A stretch of DNA of 42,822 bases from a phage: the NCBI GenBank assembly GCA_018167975.1, contig GCA_018167975.1_4333.1, one strand, 5' to 3'. Positions 1,361 to 42,822 of the stretch are shown piece by piece; within the stretch, counting starts at the first letter, position 1, and the number at the start of each line of letters is the position of its first letter. Made by a program: the position numbers and the translations under genes. The notes beneath the pieces were generated by a model that worked only from the letters and a program-made list of their open reading frames with translations, was not told the origin of the DNA and did not search any database.

Positions 1361-1801
1361 TTATCCTAATAGTTGTTTGGTAATAATCTTGCCACCGGTG
1401 TTAGTGTCGAACTTCGAGGCAACAGCTACGCCACCATGTGCCGAATACCCGCATTCCATAGCCGCTAATGCATAAGGAGAACCGGAACCAACGGCGGCAA
1501 AGCTATCGGCAACTGGAATAACCGAACTAAGTGCACAATCCCATGATTTATAAAATGCGACTTTATACACCTTTTCTGTGTCTTTCACGAACACCAGGGC
1601 TTCGAAATCGAAGTCGTAGTGCTGTGGCCAAAGAATATCGGGACGATCGATAAGCATAGTCCCTACCCCAGCATCACCAGCCACCCCGATAACGGCAAAA
1701 TTATTCTCATATATCTTTGTGTCTGTGTTGTAACAGTTGCTCCCGCACACAACACGGGTGTCACAAGCCATTGTCTTTCCGTCAAACGCGATAGTAGTCA
1801 T
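1361..1801 (-). CDS. HslV-like Ntn-hydrolase (proteasome-type threonine peptidase homolog)
   Basis: N-terminus MTTIAF (Thr directly after Met, as in HslV MTTIVSV) and AVGSGSPYALAA matching the HslV GSGGPYAQAA signature; GGAG RBS 8 nt upstream of the ATG at 1801. Confidence 0.55.
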   Translation of the reverse strand: MTTIAFDGKTMACDTRVVCGSNCYNTDTKIYENNFAVIGVAGDAGVGTMLIDRPDILWPQHYDFDFEALVFVKDTEKVYKVAFYKSWDCALSSVIPVADSFAAVGSGSPYALAAMECGYSAHGGVAVASKFDTNTGGKIITKQLLG

Positions 1802-3337: not shown

Positions 3338-3368
3338 CTTTTGTCTCTCCTCTCGTTTGTGTAAATGA

Positions 3369-3397
3369 ATAGTAGCCTATTCTATCTTAGCGTGCAA
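3369..3397 (-). promoter_or_regulatory. Sigma70-like promoter (minus strand): -35 TTGCAC, 17-bp spacer, -10 TACTAT, with AATAG-N4-CTATT palindrome in the spacer
   Basis: rc of 3392-3397 = TTGCAC; rc of 3369-3374 = TACTAT; spacer 17 nt; same design as the promoters at 4831, 26106, 35159 and 37018. Confidence 0.5.
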
Positions 3398-3557
3398 GTA
3401 AATTTTATTGGTGTTTGTATTGTTGCATCTCCTGCAATAGTCGCTTCGATTGTTGCGTTTGGTGAAATAGAACAAAAATGAGAAAAATGATACGCTGCTG
3501 TGTAGCAGCGTAAGTCACAAAGCCAAATAGTAACCTATTGACCTGTTACACCACCTG

Positions 3558-4796: not shown

Positions 4797-4830
4797 AACC
4801 CTCACTCCTCTGTCTCGTTTCGATAAGTGA

Positions 4831-4859
4831 ATAGTATCCTATTATGTTGGGGTGTGCAA
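4831..4859 (-). promoter_or_regulatory. Sigma70-like promoter (minus strand): -35 TTGCAC, 17-bp spacer, -10 TACTAT, with embedded AATAG-N4-CTATT palindrome
   Basis: rc of 4854-4859 = TTGCAC, rc of 4831-4836 = TACTAT; the 37 nt 4824-4860 are an exact reverse-complement copy of 26105-26141. Confidence 0.55.
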
Positions 4860-5195
4860 GAGAATAGTTACGTTGCCGTTGTGATTCTTTCGTGTAATAG
4901 GATAGCGAGCGAAACGAAACGAACGTGGTGCCGAAGGCACCAAGAGTGAGTGAGTGAGCTTGCGAATCAATAACTTATATCATGTGGTAAAATTTAAATA
5001 GACGGGGGCTTTCTTGCGACTTGCTGTTACTTTGAGGAAACTTAGATACTAACGTTGTCGAAGTGACTCTCAGCGCCCGTCCTTCATTGGCCGGGCTTTG
5101 GTCACCAGAGACTTAATAATAATGTTTCTAAGTAATTCTAAACTAAAGTCCTTCGATACGTTGATTTTACAGCTACATTTTATTTTGTCAACAGG

Positions 5196-5224
5196 TTGTG
5201 TTTAGCTATCGTGGGTGTTATAGT
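5196..5224 (+). promoter_or_regulatory. Candidate early rightward promoter: -35 TTGTGT, 17-bp spacer, -10 TATAGT
   Basis: TATAGT at 5219-5224 (the -10 hexamer shared by the plus-strand promoters at 8656, 10943 and 15053); weak -35; 30 nt upstream of the HTH gene start. Confidence 0.35.
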
Positions 5225-5253
5225 TGTTTCACTTGATAAAGAGGGCGCGTAAA

Positions 5254-5433
5254 ATGACACAGAAAGAAGTAGCAGACTTAATAGGGGTATCTCCTATGAC
5301 GCTTAATCGCTGGTTACGGTCTGGTAAGTTCCCGGAGTGTTGCCGGGTTATTAATGGCTACCGGCAGCCCGGTACTTTTGACCGCGCTACTGTGGAGGAG
5401 TGGATTAAGGAGAACGTGAAAGATGTTAACTAA
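5254..5433 (+). CDS. Small helix-turn-helix DNA-binding protein (AlpA/Xis/MerR-like HTH)
   Basis: MTQKEVADLIGVSPMTLNRWLRSGKFP is a classic HTH segment; ATG at 5254 with GAGGG RBS; first gene of the rightward early operon. Confidence 0.55.
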   Translation: MTQKEVADLIGVSPMTLNRWLRSGKFPECCRVINGYRQPGTFDRATVEEWIKENVKDVN

Positions 5434-5756: not shown

Positions 5757-8027
5757 ATGTCCGATGTAATTTTATCCTACTCGTGGTCTCGTCGCAACGC
5801 GCGGGCAGAGAAAAAGGATATAAACGTCAGAACAACACACACGGCAACACTGGACAACCTGAAAGAGTTAATCCAGCCGCTCGATGCCGTTCGTGACGGA
5901 ATTAACCCGAAGACCGCGCCGGGCTATATCACTGCCGCGTGCGATTCTACGCACAGCACCGTAAAAGACCCGGAAACCGGTGACTTTAAGCAAGCGCGTA
6001 AAGGCTTCTTCTATCGCTGTGATGCGTCTGTAAGCAAATCGTCGCTGGCGTACCTGGACTTCGACAGTGCAACGCCGGAAGAGTATCAGGAAGCGGTGCG
6101 CCTGGTTAAGCGCAGCCGCCGGGCGATGTGCCTCTACACCACGGCATCTCATACCGATGAGTCTCCACGCTTTCGCGTCGTCATGCCACTGGGCCGTCCT
6201 GTTGAAGGTGGTGACATCATCCGCATTCGTCATGGATTGCTGGAGCACTTCTTCGAAGGCATGGGTGCTGACCGCAGCGGGTTCACTCTGTCCCAGCCGA
6301 TGTACCTGCCGCCGGTTGGCTCTCAGGTTATCTGGTCGCGTCGCAATGACCTGATTGACCCGGACGAGTTACTGGAAGGCATCCCGGATTACGAGGTGAG
6401 CAGCGCGTCTGACTACCAGATACCGGAAGAACTGCGCACCTCGTTCACGGATGCGTTCGAAGCACTGGCGTTCGAGTACGGTGGCATCATGACGCCGCGT
6501 GGCCTTAAGATACCAGCTACGCCAGAACACGCAGAGAACTACAGCGACCCGACCCCGCGCCCGGACGACTTCCTGCTGTGTTTCCCGCGCGAGGGGTATG
6601 AAGCGCCGAACGTAACCATGATTCACGACACCGACATTACGGCAACAGAAGGCATGTCACCGAAAGAGGTGTGGAAGTATGCGTGTGATGCGACCGGTCT
6701 GCCGTTCAGTGAGGTCGCTGAGGCTATTGGCTGGGGCGCACGTGAATCTATTTCATGCAGTCTCGATGACCTGGAGGACGACGAGGACTCAGAGGTGGAC
6801 GAGTTACCTGAACCGGTAAAGGCTGATTTCGTCGTCGAGGGGTACATGCCGTCAGATTGTATCTGGGATATCGTCGGGGAATCCGGCACGTACAAATCAT
6901 TCTATACGCTGGGGATGATGTACCTTAGCGCCGCCGGATACCGGTTCGCGGGGGCCGATACCCAGCGTTGCCACCATTTCTATGTCGACGGTGAGGGTGG
7001 CGCTGCTACACGTACCCGTATTGATGCGCTCGCGGCTAAATATGGCGAGGAAGGTAAAGATTATGTACATGTCATTGATATGGGCGAAGTCGGAAAACTG
7101 AAAAACCTGATTAAGCTAATGCGCGAAACTGCGGGCGATGAACCAATCGGCATGGTTGCGTTCGACACCCTTAACCAGACGCTGGCCCTGACGATTGATA
7201 AGTTCGACGAGAACAGTTCATCAACGGCAATCGGTATGGGTAAAGTTATCGCCATCCTGAAAGAAGTACGCGACGCGACTAAAGCCGCGGTAGGCGTTGT
7301 GCACCACACACCGAAAGGCGGAAAGAAAGCCCGAGGTAGCGGCGCTCTGTATGCAGGCGTAGACGTTGAACTGACAATTGAACGTGCCACCGAACGTCAG
7401 ATAAACGTATACCACTCTAAATTTAAGCACGGGCCTCAACAGAAAACGGTTGGCATGGTGTTGGAGTCAGTACAGTTCCGCGAAGCCCCGCCACCGAAAG
7501 AGTACCGCGCGGTTGAGTTCCTCGGTAGCACAGAGGAATACGGCACAATCGTAAACCTCGACCTGCCGGAACCGCACAAGGCGCTTGTGCTGATGCCGTG
7601 GGGCTTCGAACCGTTCAAAACTGACGAGGAGAAAGAGCGGGAAGAAGGGCTGACAAAGGAAGGTAAAGCGGCCATTAAAGAAAAGGTAGGTCAGTTCGAG
7701 AAACTTGATACCAAAGAAGCTACGGTTATTTACGCATTGGGTAAATTGCAGGAGCAGGGTGACGACAAGCGAGGGTTTTCTATGTCAGCTATCGTCAAAG
7801 CCGCGAAAGAAGATAGTTACGGCGTACCAATTAACGCTAATAACGACCTTCGAAAGAAACTGGAAGAGATGCACGAGGCTGGGGTTATCGTCTCGGGTCT
7901 GGATAACAACAACAGACCTATCCCTAAGCAGTACCGGTTGCCGTGGGGTATAAACGACAACAAAATACCGAAGACAATATACGAACCGAATGAGATGTTA
8001 ACAGTGACAGAGGAGGATTTGGAATGA
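5757..8027 (+). CDS. Replication primase-helicase (primase-like N-terminal domain fused to a RecA-like/AAA_25 ATPase domain)
   Basis: 756 aa; N-terminal region with LAYLDFD...CLYTTASHTDESPRFRVVMPLG (prim-pol-like); C-terminal region with GESGTYKS (P-loop-like), VAFDTLNQ and VVHHTPKGG segments typical of RepA/DnaB-type RecA folds; GAAGGAAA RBS. Confidence 0.6.
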   Translation: MSDVILSYSWSRRNARAEKKDINVRTTHTATLDNLKELIQPLDAVRDGINPKTAPGYITAACDSTHSTVKDPETGDFKQARKGFFYRCDASVSKSSLAYLDFDSATPEEYQEAVRLVKRSRRAMCLYTTASHTDESPRFRVVMPLGRPVEGGDIIRIRHGLLEHFFEGMGADRSGFTLSQPMYLPPVGSQVIWSRRNDLIDPDELLEGIPDYEVSSASDYQIPEELRTSFTDAFEALAFEYGGIMTPRGLKIPATPEHAENYSDPTPRPDDFLLCFPREGYEAPNVTMIHDTDITATEGMSPKEVWKYACDATGLPFSEVAEAIGWGARESISCSLDDLEDDEDSEVDELPEPVKADFVVEGYMPSDCIWDIVGESGTYKSFYTLGMMYLSAAGYRFAGADTQRCHHFYVDGEGGAATRTRIDALAAKYGEEGKDYVHVIDMGEVGKLKNLIKLMRETAGDEPIGMVAFDTLNQTLALTIDKFDENSSSTAIGMGKVIAILKEVRDATKAAVGVVHHTPKGGKKARGSGALYAGVDVELTIERATERQINVYHSKFKHGPQQKTVGMVLESVQFREAPPPKEYRAVEFLGSTEEYGTIVNLDLPEPHKALVLMPWGFEPFKTDEEKEREEGLTKEGKAAIKEKVGQFEKLDTKEATVIYALGKLQEQGDDKRGFSMSAIVKAAKEDSYGVPINANNDLRKKLEEMHEAGVIVSGLDNNNRPIPKQYRLPWGINDNKIPKTIYEPNEMLTVTEEDLE

Positions 8028-8338
8028 ATATCTACGATTTTATAGATAACCCGTTTAAGGCAGTGAAGGCAGGATACCGCCCGTCATACCTGACATGTGT
8101 TTCCGCGGTAAGCGGCCACTGGTGGACTTTTTGGGTTTACACGGCGGGGATTTTTGCGGAGTTTAAAGACATTTTAGATATGACGCTGGCGGAGATTATA
8201 AAGTGCCTTTTCAAGTTGATTATCGCGATAGCTATTGTAATAAGTTTTCCTGTAAGTGTGTGGTTTCTGGCCTGGATTCAGTACCTGAACGTGCAACACA
8301 CGGTTAAGAATTTGGAAGAACTCGATAAGTTGAAATAA
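8024..8338 (+). CDS. Hypothetical membrane protein
   Basis: ATGA overlap with the primase-helicase stop; hydrophobic segments HWWTFWVYTAGIFA and LIIAIAIVISFPVSVWFLAWI. Confidence 0.5.
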   Translation: MNIYDFIDNPFKAVKAGYRPSYLTCVSAVSGHWWTFWVYTAGIFAEFKDILDMTLAEIIKCLFKLIIAIAIVISFPVSVWFLAWIQYLNVQHTVKNLEELDKLK

Positions 8339-8362
8339 AAAGAAAGGGGCGTTAAGCCCCTT
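8333..8362. terminator. Bidirectional hairpin terminator between convergent genes
   Basis: Stem AGGGGC (8345-8350) / GCCCCT (8356-8361), loop GTTAA; A-rich tract upstream on the plus strand gives a U-tract for the minus-strand (Cro-like gene) transcript. Confidence 0.5.
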
Positions 8363-8567
8363 CACCGAACGCCAGCCACTTGGCGTCTACTTCCAGCACT
8401 TCCGCCAGTTTAAACAGCGTCGCCGGGCGGACGTCCTGAGTTACTCCAAGTGCCAGCTGGTTAATTACGCCCTGGGAAACGCCAGCCAGGACAGCAAGAC
8501 GGCGCTGGGAGATGCCGAGTTCTTTACGACGTTGTTCTACACGGATGCCTAGTTCAGATGGTTGCAT
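8352..8567 (-). CDS. Cro/CI-type (XRE-family) HTH transcriptional regulator
   Basis: 71 aa; ELGISQRRLAVLAGVSQGVINQL is a canonical XRE HTH; AAGGAG RBS; divergently transcribed from the rightward early promoter at 8632-8661. Confidence 0.7.
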   Translation of the reverse strand: MQPSELGIRVEQRRKELGISQRRLAVLAGVSQGVINQLALGVTQDVRPATLFKLAEVLEVDAKWLAFGEGA

Positions 8568-8598
8568 GTCAATTACTCCTTAGTCAGTTGATATGTGA

Positions 8599-8627
8599 AT
8601 AGTACCATATTAATTATTTTAGAAAAG
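8599..8627 (-). promoter_or_regulatory. Candidate promoter of the Cro-like regulator gene (extended -10 TGGTACTAT, weak -35)
   Basis: rc of 8599-8607 = TGGTACTAT (TGn extended -10); spacer region carries a degenerate copy of the AATAG palindrome; back-to-back with the plus-strand promoter. Confidence 0.4.
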
Positions 8628-8631
8628 CCCA

Positions 8632-8661
8632 TTGACAACATGAATAGTTCGCTATTATAGT
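8632..8661 (+). promoter_or_regulatory. Sigma70-like promoter: -35 TTGACA, 18-bp spacer, -10 TATAGT, palindrome AATAGTTCGCTATT in spacer
   Basis: TTGACA 8632-8637, TATAGT 8656-8661; AATAG-N4-CTATT at 8643-8656; followed by GAGGAG RBS and the ATG at 8693. Confidence 0.6.
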
Positions 8662-8692
8662 TAGCGCATACCAAACGAGAGGAGAGAAACAA

Positions 8693-9214
8693 ATGTTAGA
8701 CCAATTCTTAAAATTACTGGAACGTTTCGTAGTTGCACATGAACTGATTGCTGCGAATAGTGCGAAACCACAAAACAGTAAATCAGTAGGTGAATTGACG
8801 GTTGACGTCGCGGTAACGGGGGTAGAAACAGTTAAAAAAGAACTGGCTAAAGCACTTGAAGAAGTCGAGAAGGCGAAAGAAACCCCGGTGGAAGGCGAAG
8901 ACATCATCGACACTAAACCGGCAGAAGAAGAGAAGCCGAAACGCAAGCCGCGTAAAGCTAAAGTAGAGGAACCGATGCCAGAACCGGAAGAAGAGAAAGA
9001 AGAGGTCGATTATAAGTCTCTGCGTGACCAGATTCAGGCTATCGACGATGCGATTAACGAAGGGCCCAGCGATGCCGCGTGCGATGACTCTGATGAACTG
9101 CTGGAAGAGTTCACCGGCAAGAAGATGAAGATTGCCGCGATTAAAGACGAAGACCTGGCTGAATACTTGGAACGCCTGACAGCGATCAAGAACAAGTATT
9201 TCGAAGAAGAATAA
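8693..9214 (+). CDS. Hypothetical acidic protein (Glu/Lys-rich, coiled-coil-like)
   Basis: 173 aa, highly charged (EEEKPKRKPRKAKVEEPMPEPEEEKEE); GAGGAG RBS; no recognisable catalytic motif. Confidence 0.55.
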   Translation: MLDQFLKLLERFVVAHELIAANSAKPQNSKSVGELTVDVAVTGVETVKKELAKALEEVEKAKETPVEGEDIIDTKPAEEEKPKRKPRKAKVEEPMPEPEEEKEEVDYKSLRDQIQAIDDAINEGPSDAACDDSDELLEEFTGKKMKIAAIKDEDLAEYLERLTAIKNKYFEEE

Positions 9215-10923: not shown

Positions 10924-10948
10924 CACCTGAATAGTTAGCTATTATAGT
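10920..10948 (+). promoter_or_regulatory. Sigma70-like promoter: -35 TTGACA, 17-bp spacer, -10 TATAGT, palindrome AATAGTTAGCTATT in spacer
   Basis: TTGACA 10920-10925, TATAGT 10943-10948; upstream of the SSB-like gene. Confidence 0.6.
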
Positions 10949-14780: not shown

Positions 14781-15091
14781 CCCCGGAAGGCAAGATTCAG
14801 AAATACGCAAAAGAGCAATTCGAGGCCATTGGTGGCCTCGTTCGCAAGATGGCATTTGAAGGTCGGCGAGCCGCTATGGACCTCCTGGTAATTCTCCCCG
14901 GAGGCATCATCTGGTTCGTTGAGGTGAAGAAAGACGAAAATACGAAGCCGGAGCCACACCAGCTACGCGAGCATGAAAGATTCCGAAAACGTGGCGCGAA
15001 TGTTTTTGTCGTTGGTTCGTTTAAACAGGTTGACACCCTAATAGCAGACTATTATAGTAAACACATACCCCAACAATATAAGGAATTATAA
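14777..15091 (+). CDS. VRR-NUC domain nuclease (PD-(D/E)XK fold)
   Basis: ORF 14762..15091; ATG at 14777; DLLVILPGGIIWFVEVKK (D...E-V-K catalytic pattern) and the small size fit VRR-NUC. Confidence 0.55.
   Translation: MTPEGKIQKYAKEQFEAIGGLVRKMAFEGRRAAMDLLVILPGGIIWFVEVKKDENTKPEPHQLREHERFRKRGANVFVVGSFKQVDTLIADYYSKHIPQQYKEL
15030..15058 (+). promoter_or_regulatory. Sigma70-like promoter: -35 TTGACA, 17-bp spacer, -10 TATAGT, palindrome AATAGCAGACTATT in spacer
   Basis: TTGACA 15030-15035, TATAGT 15053-15058; lies inside the 3' end of the VRR-NUC gene, upstream of the 15093 gene. Confidence 0.55.
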
Positions 15092-34839: not shown

Positions 34840-35090
34840 GTTTCTCCTTTCTCGATAAGTAAAGCCCCGCCATAAAGCGGGGCGCTAGTCCTTATCATTT
34901 AAACATAGAAACGGCGTAATCTCAGTAAACCAGTTACTTTTTACACAAGCAATAGAGTATGGCCCTTCCGAACGCGTCAGCGTAACTACACTCAGGACTT
35001 ACGTCCCGCTTCGTTACCTGCCCGCGCCGCGGTCGCTTGTTCATACTTCACAAGCTCAGGTGAAGCTTAGCATATTTTTAGTGAAAAGTC

Positions 35091-35106
35091 AACTATTCGA
35101 ATAGTT
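35091..35106. promoter_or_regulatory. Perfect 16-bp palindrome AACTATTCGAATAGTT (candidate regulator binding site)
   Basis: Self-complementary; shares the GAATAG/CTATTC half-site with the promoter-embedded palindromes; lies in the 380-bp intergenic region upstream of Rz and the 35222 moron. Confidence 0.4.
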
Positions 35107-35158: not shown

Positions 35159-35187
35159 TTGCACACCCCAACATAATAGGGTACTAT
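35159..35187 (+). promoter_or_regulatory. Sigma70-like promoter: -35 TTGCAC, 17-bp spacer, -10 TACTAT, palindrome AATAGGGTACTATT
   Basis: TTGCAC 35159-35164, TACTAT 35182-35187; near-identical to the promoters at 26106 and 4831 (rc). Confidence 0.6.
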
Positions 35188-35221
35188 TCATTACATCGAA
35201 ACGAGAGATAAGGAATTTAGA

Positions 35222-37017: not shown

Positions 37018-37046
37018 TTGCAGGCACCAATATAATAGGGTACTAT
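37018..37046 (+). promoter_or_regulatory. Sigma70-like promoter: -35 TTGCAG, 17-bp spacer, -10 TACTAT, palindrome AATAGGGTACTATT
   Basis: TTGCAG 37018-37023, TACTAT 37041-37046; followed by CAGGAGGG RBS and the ATG at 37072. Confidence 0.55.
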
Positions 37047-37071
37047 TCAGTTAACTTAAACAGGAGGGTGT

Positions 37072-42772: not shown

Positions 42773-42801
42773 ATATAATAGGGTCGTAGGTAATAGTCAA
42801 C
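42773..42801 (-). promoter_or_regulatory. Candidate leftward promoter: -35 TTGACT, 17-bp spacer, -10 TATATT
   Basis: rc of 42796-42801 = TTGACT; rc of 42773-42778 = TATATT; region contains AATAGGG/TAATAG motif relatives. Confidence 0.35.
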
Positions 42802-42822
42802 TAGTCATTACAGAAAACATAT

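Follow-up and report, generated by a model that had tools for sequence, protein, structure and literature searches.

The 42.8-kb stretch of DNA analyzed here, referred to as the window, is a near-complete genome of a virulent Escherichia coli Kagunavirus (Guernseyvirinae), in which a 434-Cro-type dimer most likely binds 14-bp AATAG-N4-CTATT operators and governs a divergent promoter pair. Judging from the sequence and a structural model, we place at about 0.6 the probability that this single dimer represses most of the phage promoters, its own among them, and in this way controls lytic transcription.

The 1.3 kb around the promoter pair matched 446 phage records at 80-95% identity, comprising E. 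coli Kagunavirus phages (K1G, ST20, Schulenburg, and others) and Salmonella Jerseyvirus phages, both belonging to the Guernseyvirinae. Set against the complete 44.7-kb genome of phage Schulenburg, the window is almost a full genome and runs in the reverse orientation. The transcription units and the regulatory features are listed in Table 1. An Rfam scan of the window gave zero matches, and a literature search found no transcriptome for any Guernseyvirinae phage.

Table 1 Transcription units, promoter elements, candidate operators and terminator of the window
Feature	Position	Strand or direction	Remarks
Small-gene/lysis operon	~4800 down to ~260	leftward	
Operon with HTH_17 gene and primase-helicase	HTH_17 gene at 5254; primase-helicase 5757-8027	rightward	
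Lone HTH regulator gene	8352-8567	leftward	
Three replication operons		rightward	nuclease; SSB and DNA polymerase; VRR-NUC and helicase
Packaging/structural block	~42800 to 17500	leftward	long
Small cassettes (n = 3)		rightward	interrupt the packaging/structural block
Intrinsic terminator, regulator gene	8343-8363	-	8-bp GC-rich hairpin, then CUUUUUAUUU, minus strand only
Ribosome-binding site AAGGAG, regulator gene	8576-8581	-	8 nt before ATG; invariant among relatives
O_L, AATAGTACCATATT	8598-8611		candidate operator, one mismatch from palindrome; covers -19 to -6 of leftward promoter
Extended -10 TGGTACTAT, putative regulator promoter	8599-8607	-	from sequence; invariant in 35 unique relatives
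Rightward -35 TTGACA	8632-8637	+	consensus scan; invariant among relatives
O_R, AATAGTTCGCTATT	8643-8656		candidate operator, perfect palindrome; covers -25 to -12 of rightward promoter
Rightward -10 TATAGT	8656-8661	+	consensus scan; 1 of 6 columns variable among relatives
First gene of rightward operon	8693-9214	+	acidic 173-aa protein, phrog_3127
Candidate operator, type A	10930-10943		spacer of TTGACA-N17-TATAGT, upstream of SSB/DNA polymerase operon
Candidate operator, type A	15040-15053		spacer of TTGACA-N17-TATAGT, upstream of VRR-NUC/helicase operon
Candidate operator, type B	4830-4843		over -10 of leftward TTGCAC-N17-TACTAT promoter heading small-gene/lysis operon
Candidate operator, type B	3368-3381		over -10 of second leftward type B promoter
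Candidate operator, type B	26122-26135		over -10 of rightward promoter of Imm-like superinfection-immunity cassette
Candidate operator, type B	35175-35188		over -10 of rightward promoter, small cassette in structural region
Candidate operator, type B	37034-37047		over -10 of rightward promoter, small cassette in structural region
Candidate operator, type C, imperfect	42792-42805		overlaps -35 (TTGACT) of leftward TTGACT-N17-TATATT promoter
Candidate operator, weaker type C, imperfect	35084-35097		overlaps TTGACT -35-like hexamer, minus strand
Perfect operator copy	3526-3539		no gene downstream; just before terminator hairpin

Positions 8568-8692 correspond exactly to the 125 bp that separate two divergent ATG codons, those of the ORFs 8352-8567 (minus strand) and 8693-9214 (plus strand). 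The sequence features that an earlier note on this DNA had named here, both promoter elements and a palindrome, are all present, and the two promoters are indeed divergent and back to back. The rightward TTGACA-N18-TATAGT promoter matches 11 of 12 consensus positions, with a predicted transcription start near 8668. Only four sigma-70 matches of this quality occur in the whole window, whereas simulated sequences having the same first-order (dinucleotide) statistics as the window averaged 0.49 and never had more than 2. Downstream, 3' of the phrog_3127 gene, lies a gene for a DUF2800/PD-(D/E)XK nuclease. The leftward extended -10, TGGTACTAT, is the reverse complement of 8599-8607 and has a correct TGn and TACTAT. 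It is placed 24 nt upstream of the AAGGAG-ATG start, and five other promoters use the same -10, TACTATTCA. The putative promoter, with a predicted start near 8592, has no convincing -35 (CTTTTC at 17 nt), and is absent from the consensus-scan list for that reason. The separation of 5 bp that had been given for the two promoters holds only approximately, there being about 4 nt between the nominal leftward -35 and TTGACA.

The palindrome AATAGTTCGCTATT lies in the spacer of the rightward promoter and is far from a chance occurrence. A second, imperfect copy, AATAGTACCATATT, which the earlier note had missed, lies on the leftward -10, and a repeat finder returned TGAATAGT..C.ATTA twice in the region, 45 bp apart. 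The region is more structured than was previously described. At the other end of the regulator gene, the terminator hairpin has a folding energy of -13.3 kcal/mol (z = -2.2), and the same hairpin on the plus strand is without a U-tract. Because the U-tract is on the minus strand only, transcripts of the helicase operon may run antisense into the regulator gene, and such read-through would be a possible extra layer of control.

The palindrome is by no means confined to this region, since about a dozen operator-like copies, this one included, are found on promoters genome-wide. In the window, AATAG-N4-CTATT occurs nine times exactly and 13 times with at most one mismatch, versus 1.0 expected from shuffled sequences (maximum 4). 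An unbiased count of all 5+N+5 palindromes ranked this motif first in the window, with nine exact copies versus 0.04 expected, and it is also the top 5+5 palindrome in Schulenburg (seven copies) and Jersey (four copies). The half-sites alone are not enriched (93 versus 78 expected); only the paired arrangement is. Ten of the 11 strong copies are upstream of a gene start. Nine of these lie 24-54 nt before a start preceded by a ribosome-binding site, on the appropriate strand, and the tenth, at 10930, is 63 nt before the SSB start. Of the four sites in the genome that best match sigma-70, three carry the motif in their spacer. The distribution is that of dispersed operators, with many copies of one site over the genome, on promoters. 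The motif has asymmetric flanks, and its halves can also be read as -10-like hexamers (TACTAT, TATTAT), so that its conservation may in part reflect promoter function instead of operator function. Sites for host factors (ARG box, CRP, LexA, or Fur) were considered and rejected by comparison with their consensus sequences.

The candidate operators are placed in three registers (spacer, -10, and -35) and in both orientations. In type A promoters, TTGACA-N4/5-AATAGnnnnCTATT-ATAGT, the operator is in the spacer, and these promoters (8643, 10930, and 15040) head the three replication operons. In type B promoters, TTGCAC-N10-AATAGGnTACTATTCA, it is over the -10 (26122, 35175, and 37034 on the plus strand, 4830 and 3368 on the minus strand), and the match to sigma-70 is poor (3/6 and 4/6). 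The promoter of the regulator itself has a type B -10 (AATATGGTACTATTCA), with TG replacing the -35. Type C promoters have the operator over the -35, as A(A/C)TAG-TTGA-CTATT containing TTGACT, at 42792 and perhaps at 35084, both copies being imperfect. The 42792 promoter leads into small genes, the terminase, and structural genes, and the arrangement is the same in Schulenburg and Jersey. At least two promoters are without an operator: a strong TTGACA-N16-TAAAAT promoter at 5191 on the minus strand, and the neighboring rightward promoter of the HTH_17/primase-helicase operon.

Several features of the window accompany these promoters. A terminator hairpin, AAGGCCC(C)-loop-(G)GGGCCTT, occurs in five copies (11655, 17322, 27939, 35448, and 37324) that are mostly flanked by A- and T-rich runs and might therefore terminate transcription on either strand. 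The three rightward type B cassettes (26122, 35175, and 37034) end at bidirectional copies of the terminator and, starting as they do with a type B promoter, look like self-contained promoter-gene-terminator "moron" units in the structural block. The first encodes, at 26176-26367, a 63-aa membrane protein with a match to Pfam Imm_superinfect (T4 Imm-like); its gene lies amid the tail genes and has an operator-bearing promoter. The copy at 3526-3539 has a TACTAT -10-like half on the minus strand, with a terminator hairpin (3493-3509) about 17 nt further on, and a degenerate copy is found beside the equivalent terminator in Jersey; the window copy could be the source of a tiny RNA, a roadblock, or an orphan site. 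Between the leftward and rightward early operons there is a noncoding gap of about 450 bp (4806-5254), of which the segment 4967-5234 matches neither Schulenburg nor Jersey. The gap holds the strongest operator-less promoter (5191, minus strand), back to back with TTGTGT-N17-TGTTATAGT before the HTH_17 gene, and a GGTGCC/GGCACC hairpin at 4927-4941, and may be a leader or encode a small RNA. The HTH_17 gene (5254-5433) encodes a second small DNA-binding protein, of 59 aa, which has excisionase/AlpA-like profile matches and consists of a DNA-binding domain only. It heads the operator-less early operon and is the main alternative candidate for a binder of phage regulatory sites; its counterpart in the Jerseyvirus-like phage SGP-C was called a "cI" (PMC8790156). 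A 146-aa ORF at 1364-1801 (minus strand) is absent from Schulenburg and Jersey and has a PHROG match annotated as an HslV-family peptidase.

The regulator was described in the earlier note as an XRE-family, Cro-like HTH protein, and both assignments are borne out. It matches Pfam HTH_3 with E = 5e-12 (46.1 bits versus a cut-off of 23, with profile positions 2-55 of 55 covered), and phage 434 Cro is its top match by sequence and by fold. In the PDB, 434 Cro, which is also 71 aa long, was the best sequence match (E = 1.4e-6, residues 6-68). A single-sequence AlphaFold model was poor (pLDDT 68) and was replaced by an AF2 model based on a 30-sequence alignment, which predicts five helices with a pLDDT of 92. 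The top PDB fold matches of this model were 2cro and 3cro (434 Cro alone and on OR1), with TM scores of 0.78-0.84 and about 40% identity, and the C-proteins of restriction-modification systems were also among its fold neighbors. The protein has a single domain of about 70 aa, without a C-terminal oligomerization, cleavage, or peptidase domain. Sequence and model together place it in the 434-Cro lineage of small dimeric operator binders. In the lambdoid Klebsiella phage GZ7, a homolog with 44% identity holds the genuine Cro position in the order CI, then Cro-CII-O, and the control region there has three 434-type 14-bp sites of the ACAA-N6-TTGT type, two of them exact. A protein-database search found close relatives only, and a profile search found phage contigs with the same divergent layout instead of independent contexts. 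In other bacterial-genome contexts, the only homologs found were on a contaminating Jerseyvirus contig and among distant Firmicutes proteins.

Thirty-five unique Kagunavirus versions of the intergenic region were aligned. Across the four half-sites and the two rightward hexamers only one of 31 columns varies, versus 39 of 94 columns elsewhere in the region (Fisher p = 3e-5). Neither the half-sites of O_L (0/10 columns) nor those of O_R (0/10) are variable, and three of the four columns in the center of O_R are. The stretch between the -35 and O_R varies in both sequence and length, the spacer being 17 or 18 nt. Conserved half-sites with a free center are the pattern that would be predicted for a dyad-binding dimer. 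The first gene after the rightward promoter differs among the 35 relatives, with at least four different N-termini, and the promoter and leader are kept, which suggests that the boundary of the rightward cassette is a recombination junction. The leader, AAACGAGAGGAG, is common to several operator-bearing promoters (8662-8692, after 35175, and after 4830 and 3368 on the minus strand). The Jerseyvirus regulator shares 51% identity with this one, and Jerseyvirus also has the same divergent layout and carries the motif at the equivalent promoters.

The distant relatives examined were AH01, STM-ZS, Smarc3, and three metagenomic contigs. In these, the HTH gene comes first in the helicase-primase operon and is divergent from the nuclease/SSB/polymerase operon. 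Relative to the distant relatives (loci L040, L042, L043, and L055-L057), the helicase module of Kagunavirus and Jerseyvirus (5757-8567 of the window) is inverted, so that the regulator gene forms a transcription unit by itself and faces the helicase operon in convergent orientation. The end of the helicase operon is without a U-tract terminator in its own direction. An AATAN-N4-NTATT-like dyad is found in the spacer of the nuclease/SSB/polymerase promoter in most of the distant relatives; Smarc3 is without it. The AATA-N6-TATT core is enriched in AH01 (5 versus 0.15 expected), L056 (8 versus 0.12), and L057 (3 versus 0.2), and is not enriched in STM-ZS, Smarc3, and L055, which bear homologs of the regulator, or in the lambdoid GZ7.

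The link between the regulator and the motif is circumstantial. The regulator gene adjoins two copies of the motif, one of them on its own promoter, and the motif is a 14-bp dyad with A at positions 1 and 4, as in the 434 operators. The association of gene and motif across the family also speaks for the link. In the 434 complexes, two glutamines make contacts to ACAA, Gln28 to adenine 1 and Gln33 to base pair 4, and both are kept in the regulator as Q32 and Q37. Operator positions 2-3 are read by 434 residues 27 and 29; the corresponding residues here are different (S31 and G33), and the bases are C-A in 434 versus A-T here. Among AH01, STM-ZS, Smarc3, L055-L057, and GZ7, changes in the recognition helix do not covary cleanly with changes in the motif. 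The sole clear contrast is between the 434-type KQQ... helix with ACAA and the S/T-Q-small... helix with AATA.

If the regulator binds the motif, a dimer at O_R would fill the spacer and the edge of the -10 of the strong sigma-70 promoter of the nuclease/recombination operon and would block RNA polymerase, while a dimer at the imperfect O_L, on the extended -10 of the regulator gene, would exert a weaker negative autoregulation. The same operator is found on about eight further promoters, where a dimer would occupy the spacers of two replication promoters, the -10 of five type B promoters, and the -35 of the structural-block promoter; the type B targets would be lysis, small-gene, and moron-like cassettes. 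In all three registers the bound dimer is expected to exclude RNA polymerase. The regulator would then control lytic transcription across the whole genome and, like Cro, turn down the early and middle genes.

The layout of the region had been likened to a lambda-type genetic switch, and the likeness proved to be superficial, with a single regulator, two operators, and no partner repressor. There is no divergent CI-type repressor gene sharing the operators; the divergent gene encodes the acidic phrog_3127 protein and is followed by replication genes. The region has no tripartite operator, only the two copies. The earlier observation that the phage has no CI-like repressor or integrase was upheld, since none is encoded in the window or in complete relatives, and the search for a lysogeny module in complete relatives that the earlier note had called for found none in their annotations, in which no integrase is listed. 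Lysogeny genes are also reported to be absent in PMC7203180 and PMC9825357. The segments specific to the window encode only the peptidase-like ORF, a tailspike C-terminus, and small ORFs. Partition, plasmid-maintenance, integrase, and antirepressor genes were searched for in the window and in relatives, and none was found. A lone regulator, with CI, integrase, and antirepressor all lacking, does not make a bistable lysis-lysogeny switch.

Among known systems, 434 Cro is the most similar. It too is a 71-aa single-domain, five-helix HTH_3 protein, about 40% identical to the regulator, with 14-bp dyads that have conserved outer bases and a variable center and overlap promoter elements, with a gene that is divergent from an adjacent promoter, and with the expected turn-down of early lytic transcription and of its own synthesis. 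Unlike the phage described here, the 434 system has a CI partner, a tripartite OR, competition between PRM and PR, and lysogeny genes. Here the half-site reads AATAG where 434 has ACAA, and the operators lie over about ten promoters rather than in two control regions. In addition, the Kagunavirus gene is transcribed alone and toward the upstream helicase operon, whereas 434 cro is the first gene of the early right operon. P1 C1, the L5 gp71 "stoperators," and the CIR sites of the phiC31 repressor are also systems in which a small regulator acts at many short sites, many of them on promoters. Those proteins are immunity repressors of temperate phages that keep the prophage silent, and their sites are mostly asymmetric (P1 and L5), whereas this phage group is without a lysogeny module. 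The restriction-modification C-proteins C.AhdI and C.BclI resemble the regulator in being small HTH_3 dimers with paired dyads at their own promoter that serve as timing devices. They activate and then repress a single operon, whereas here many promoters are targeted and there is no sign of an activating site.

Three other explanations of the motif can be weighed against repression by the Cro-type dimer. The motif might be a phage-specific promoter signature read by RNA polymerase together with some further factor of phage or host origin, such as the HTH_17 protein (5254-5433), with the Cro-like protein regulating something else or only itself. The same element has been printed for the Kagunavirus phage fBC-Eco01 as seven PHIRE "phage promoters" with the consensus tgAATAGTa-ccTATTat-T, which were ascribed to a phage-encoded RNA polymerase (PMC9825357); the dyad symmetry, the overlap with sigma-70 hexamers, and the link to an HTH gene were not discussed there. 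Seven PHIRE promoters are also reported for the Kagunavirus phage Golestan (PMC7203180). The coincidence of the motif halves with -10-like hexamers, the lack of clean helix covariation, and the three homolog-bearing relatives without enrichment also speak for a promoter signature. However, neither a phage RNA polymerase nor a sigma factor is found in the annotations of complete relatives or among the window-specific ORFs, and three registers and both orientations point to a distinct binding site more than to contact with polymerase. Conservation of the half-sites around a variable center is the signature of a dyad-binding dimer, and HTH_17/excisionase-type proteins are not typical binders of 14-bp dyads. 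We regard the promoter-signature explanation as unlikely. A second possibility is that the regulator is also an activator, one that switches on the weak TTGCAC-N17-TACTAT or the late promoter and represses the strong replication promoters, which would make a true early-to-late switch in the manner of the C-proteins or of lambda CI at PRM. The poor sigma-70 matches of the type B promoters, the presence of C-proteins among the fold neighbors, and the position of the site in late-type promoters over the -35 rather than the -10 are compatible with this. It is nevertheless improbable in our judgment, as a type B site at -19 to -6 should exclude polymerase, no known activator works from that position, and no separate site at an activator position was found upstream of the type B promoters.

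The lone repressor could instead silence an episomal genome in an integrase-free dormant or carrier state that gives superinfection immunity, so that phages called virulent would be weakly temperate. Dispersed operators do recall the regulons of P1 C1 and mycobacteriophage L5. The Jerseyvirus-like phage SGP-C is reported in one paper to form turbid plaques and immune "lysogens" with possibly episomal DNA, and its counterpart of the regulator gene was named repressor or Cro (PMC8790156), but these data also fit a carrier state or resistant mutants. A dormant state is hard to reconcile with the hundreds of relatives described as strictly lytic (PMC7203180, PMC9825357), and with the lack of partition, plasmid-maintenance, integrase, and antirepressor genes. 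Moreover, the protein is Cro-sized and has no C-terminal oligomerization or cleavage domain, and the strong 5191 promoter and that of the helicase-primase operon carry no operator. We give this explanation a low probability, similar to that of the activator.

Repression by the Cro-type dimer would also bear on timing, for which the earlier note had proposed an early/late switch. Perfect operators are found on the replication, lysis, and cassette promoters, and imperfect ones on the regulator's own and the late-type promoter. Given this split, a rising level of regulator would reduce transcription of the early and middle units before that of the late unit and of its own gene, and the order of shut-off may be set by operator quality. 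A repressor on nearly all promoters, including that of the late genes, does not alone give an early-to-late switch. The proposed early/late timing switch is still a reasonable inference; if it exists, it would act through the dispersed regulon and not through the 125-bp region alone.

Cro-type regulators, divergent promoters, and autoregulation are already known, as are orphan Cro-like genes in virulent phages, and the motif itself has been printed. What appears to be new in the literature searched is the recognition of a dyad operator within sigma-70 promoters, its pairing with a 434-Cro-like gene, and a dispersed regulon across the Guernseyvirinae. Kagunavirus and Jerseyvirus phages are among those most often isolated for therapy and food safety, and their safety is declared largely on the absence of lysogeny genes. 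If about ten promoters are indeed controlled through one 14-bp site, this would explain a motif that has been mislabeled in the literature, the repressible promoter set would be a simple handle for engineering these small genomes, and the finding would bear on occasional claims of immune carrier clones. More broadly, and as a tentative and rather doubtful generalization, the Guernseyvirinae, a subfamily of "virulent" siphoviruses, and their relatives might run their lytic program with a single Cro-type protein and operators in nearly every promoter, achieving a graded shut-off without a sigma factor, an antiterminator, or a second repressor, an arrangement that might permit a reversible, integrase-free silent or carrier state.
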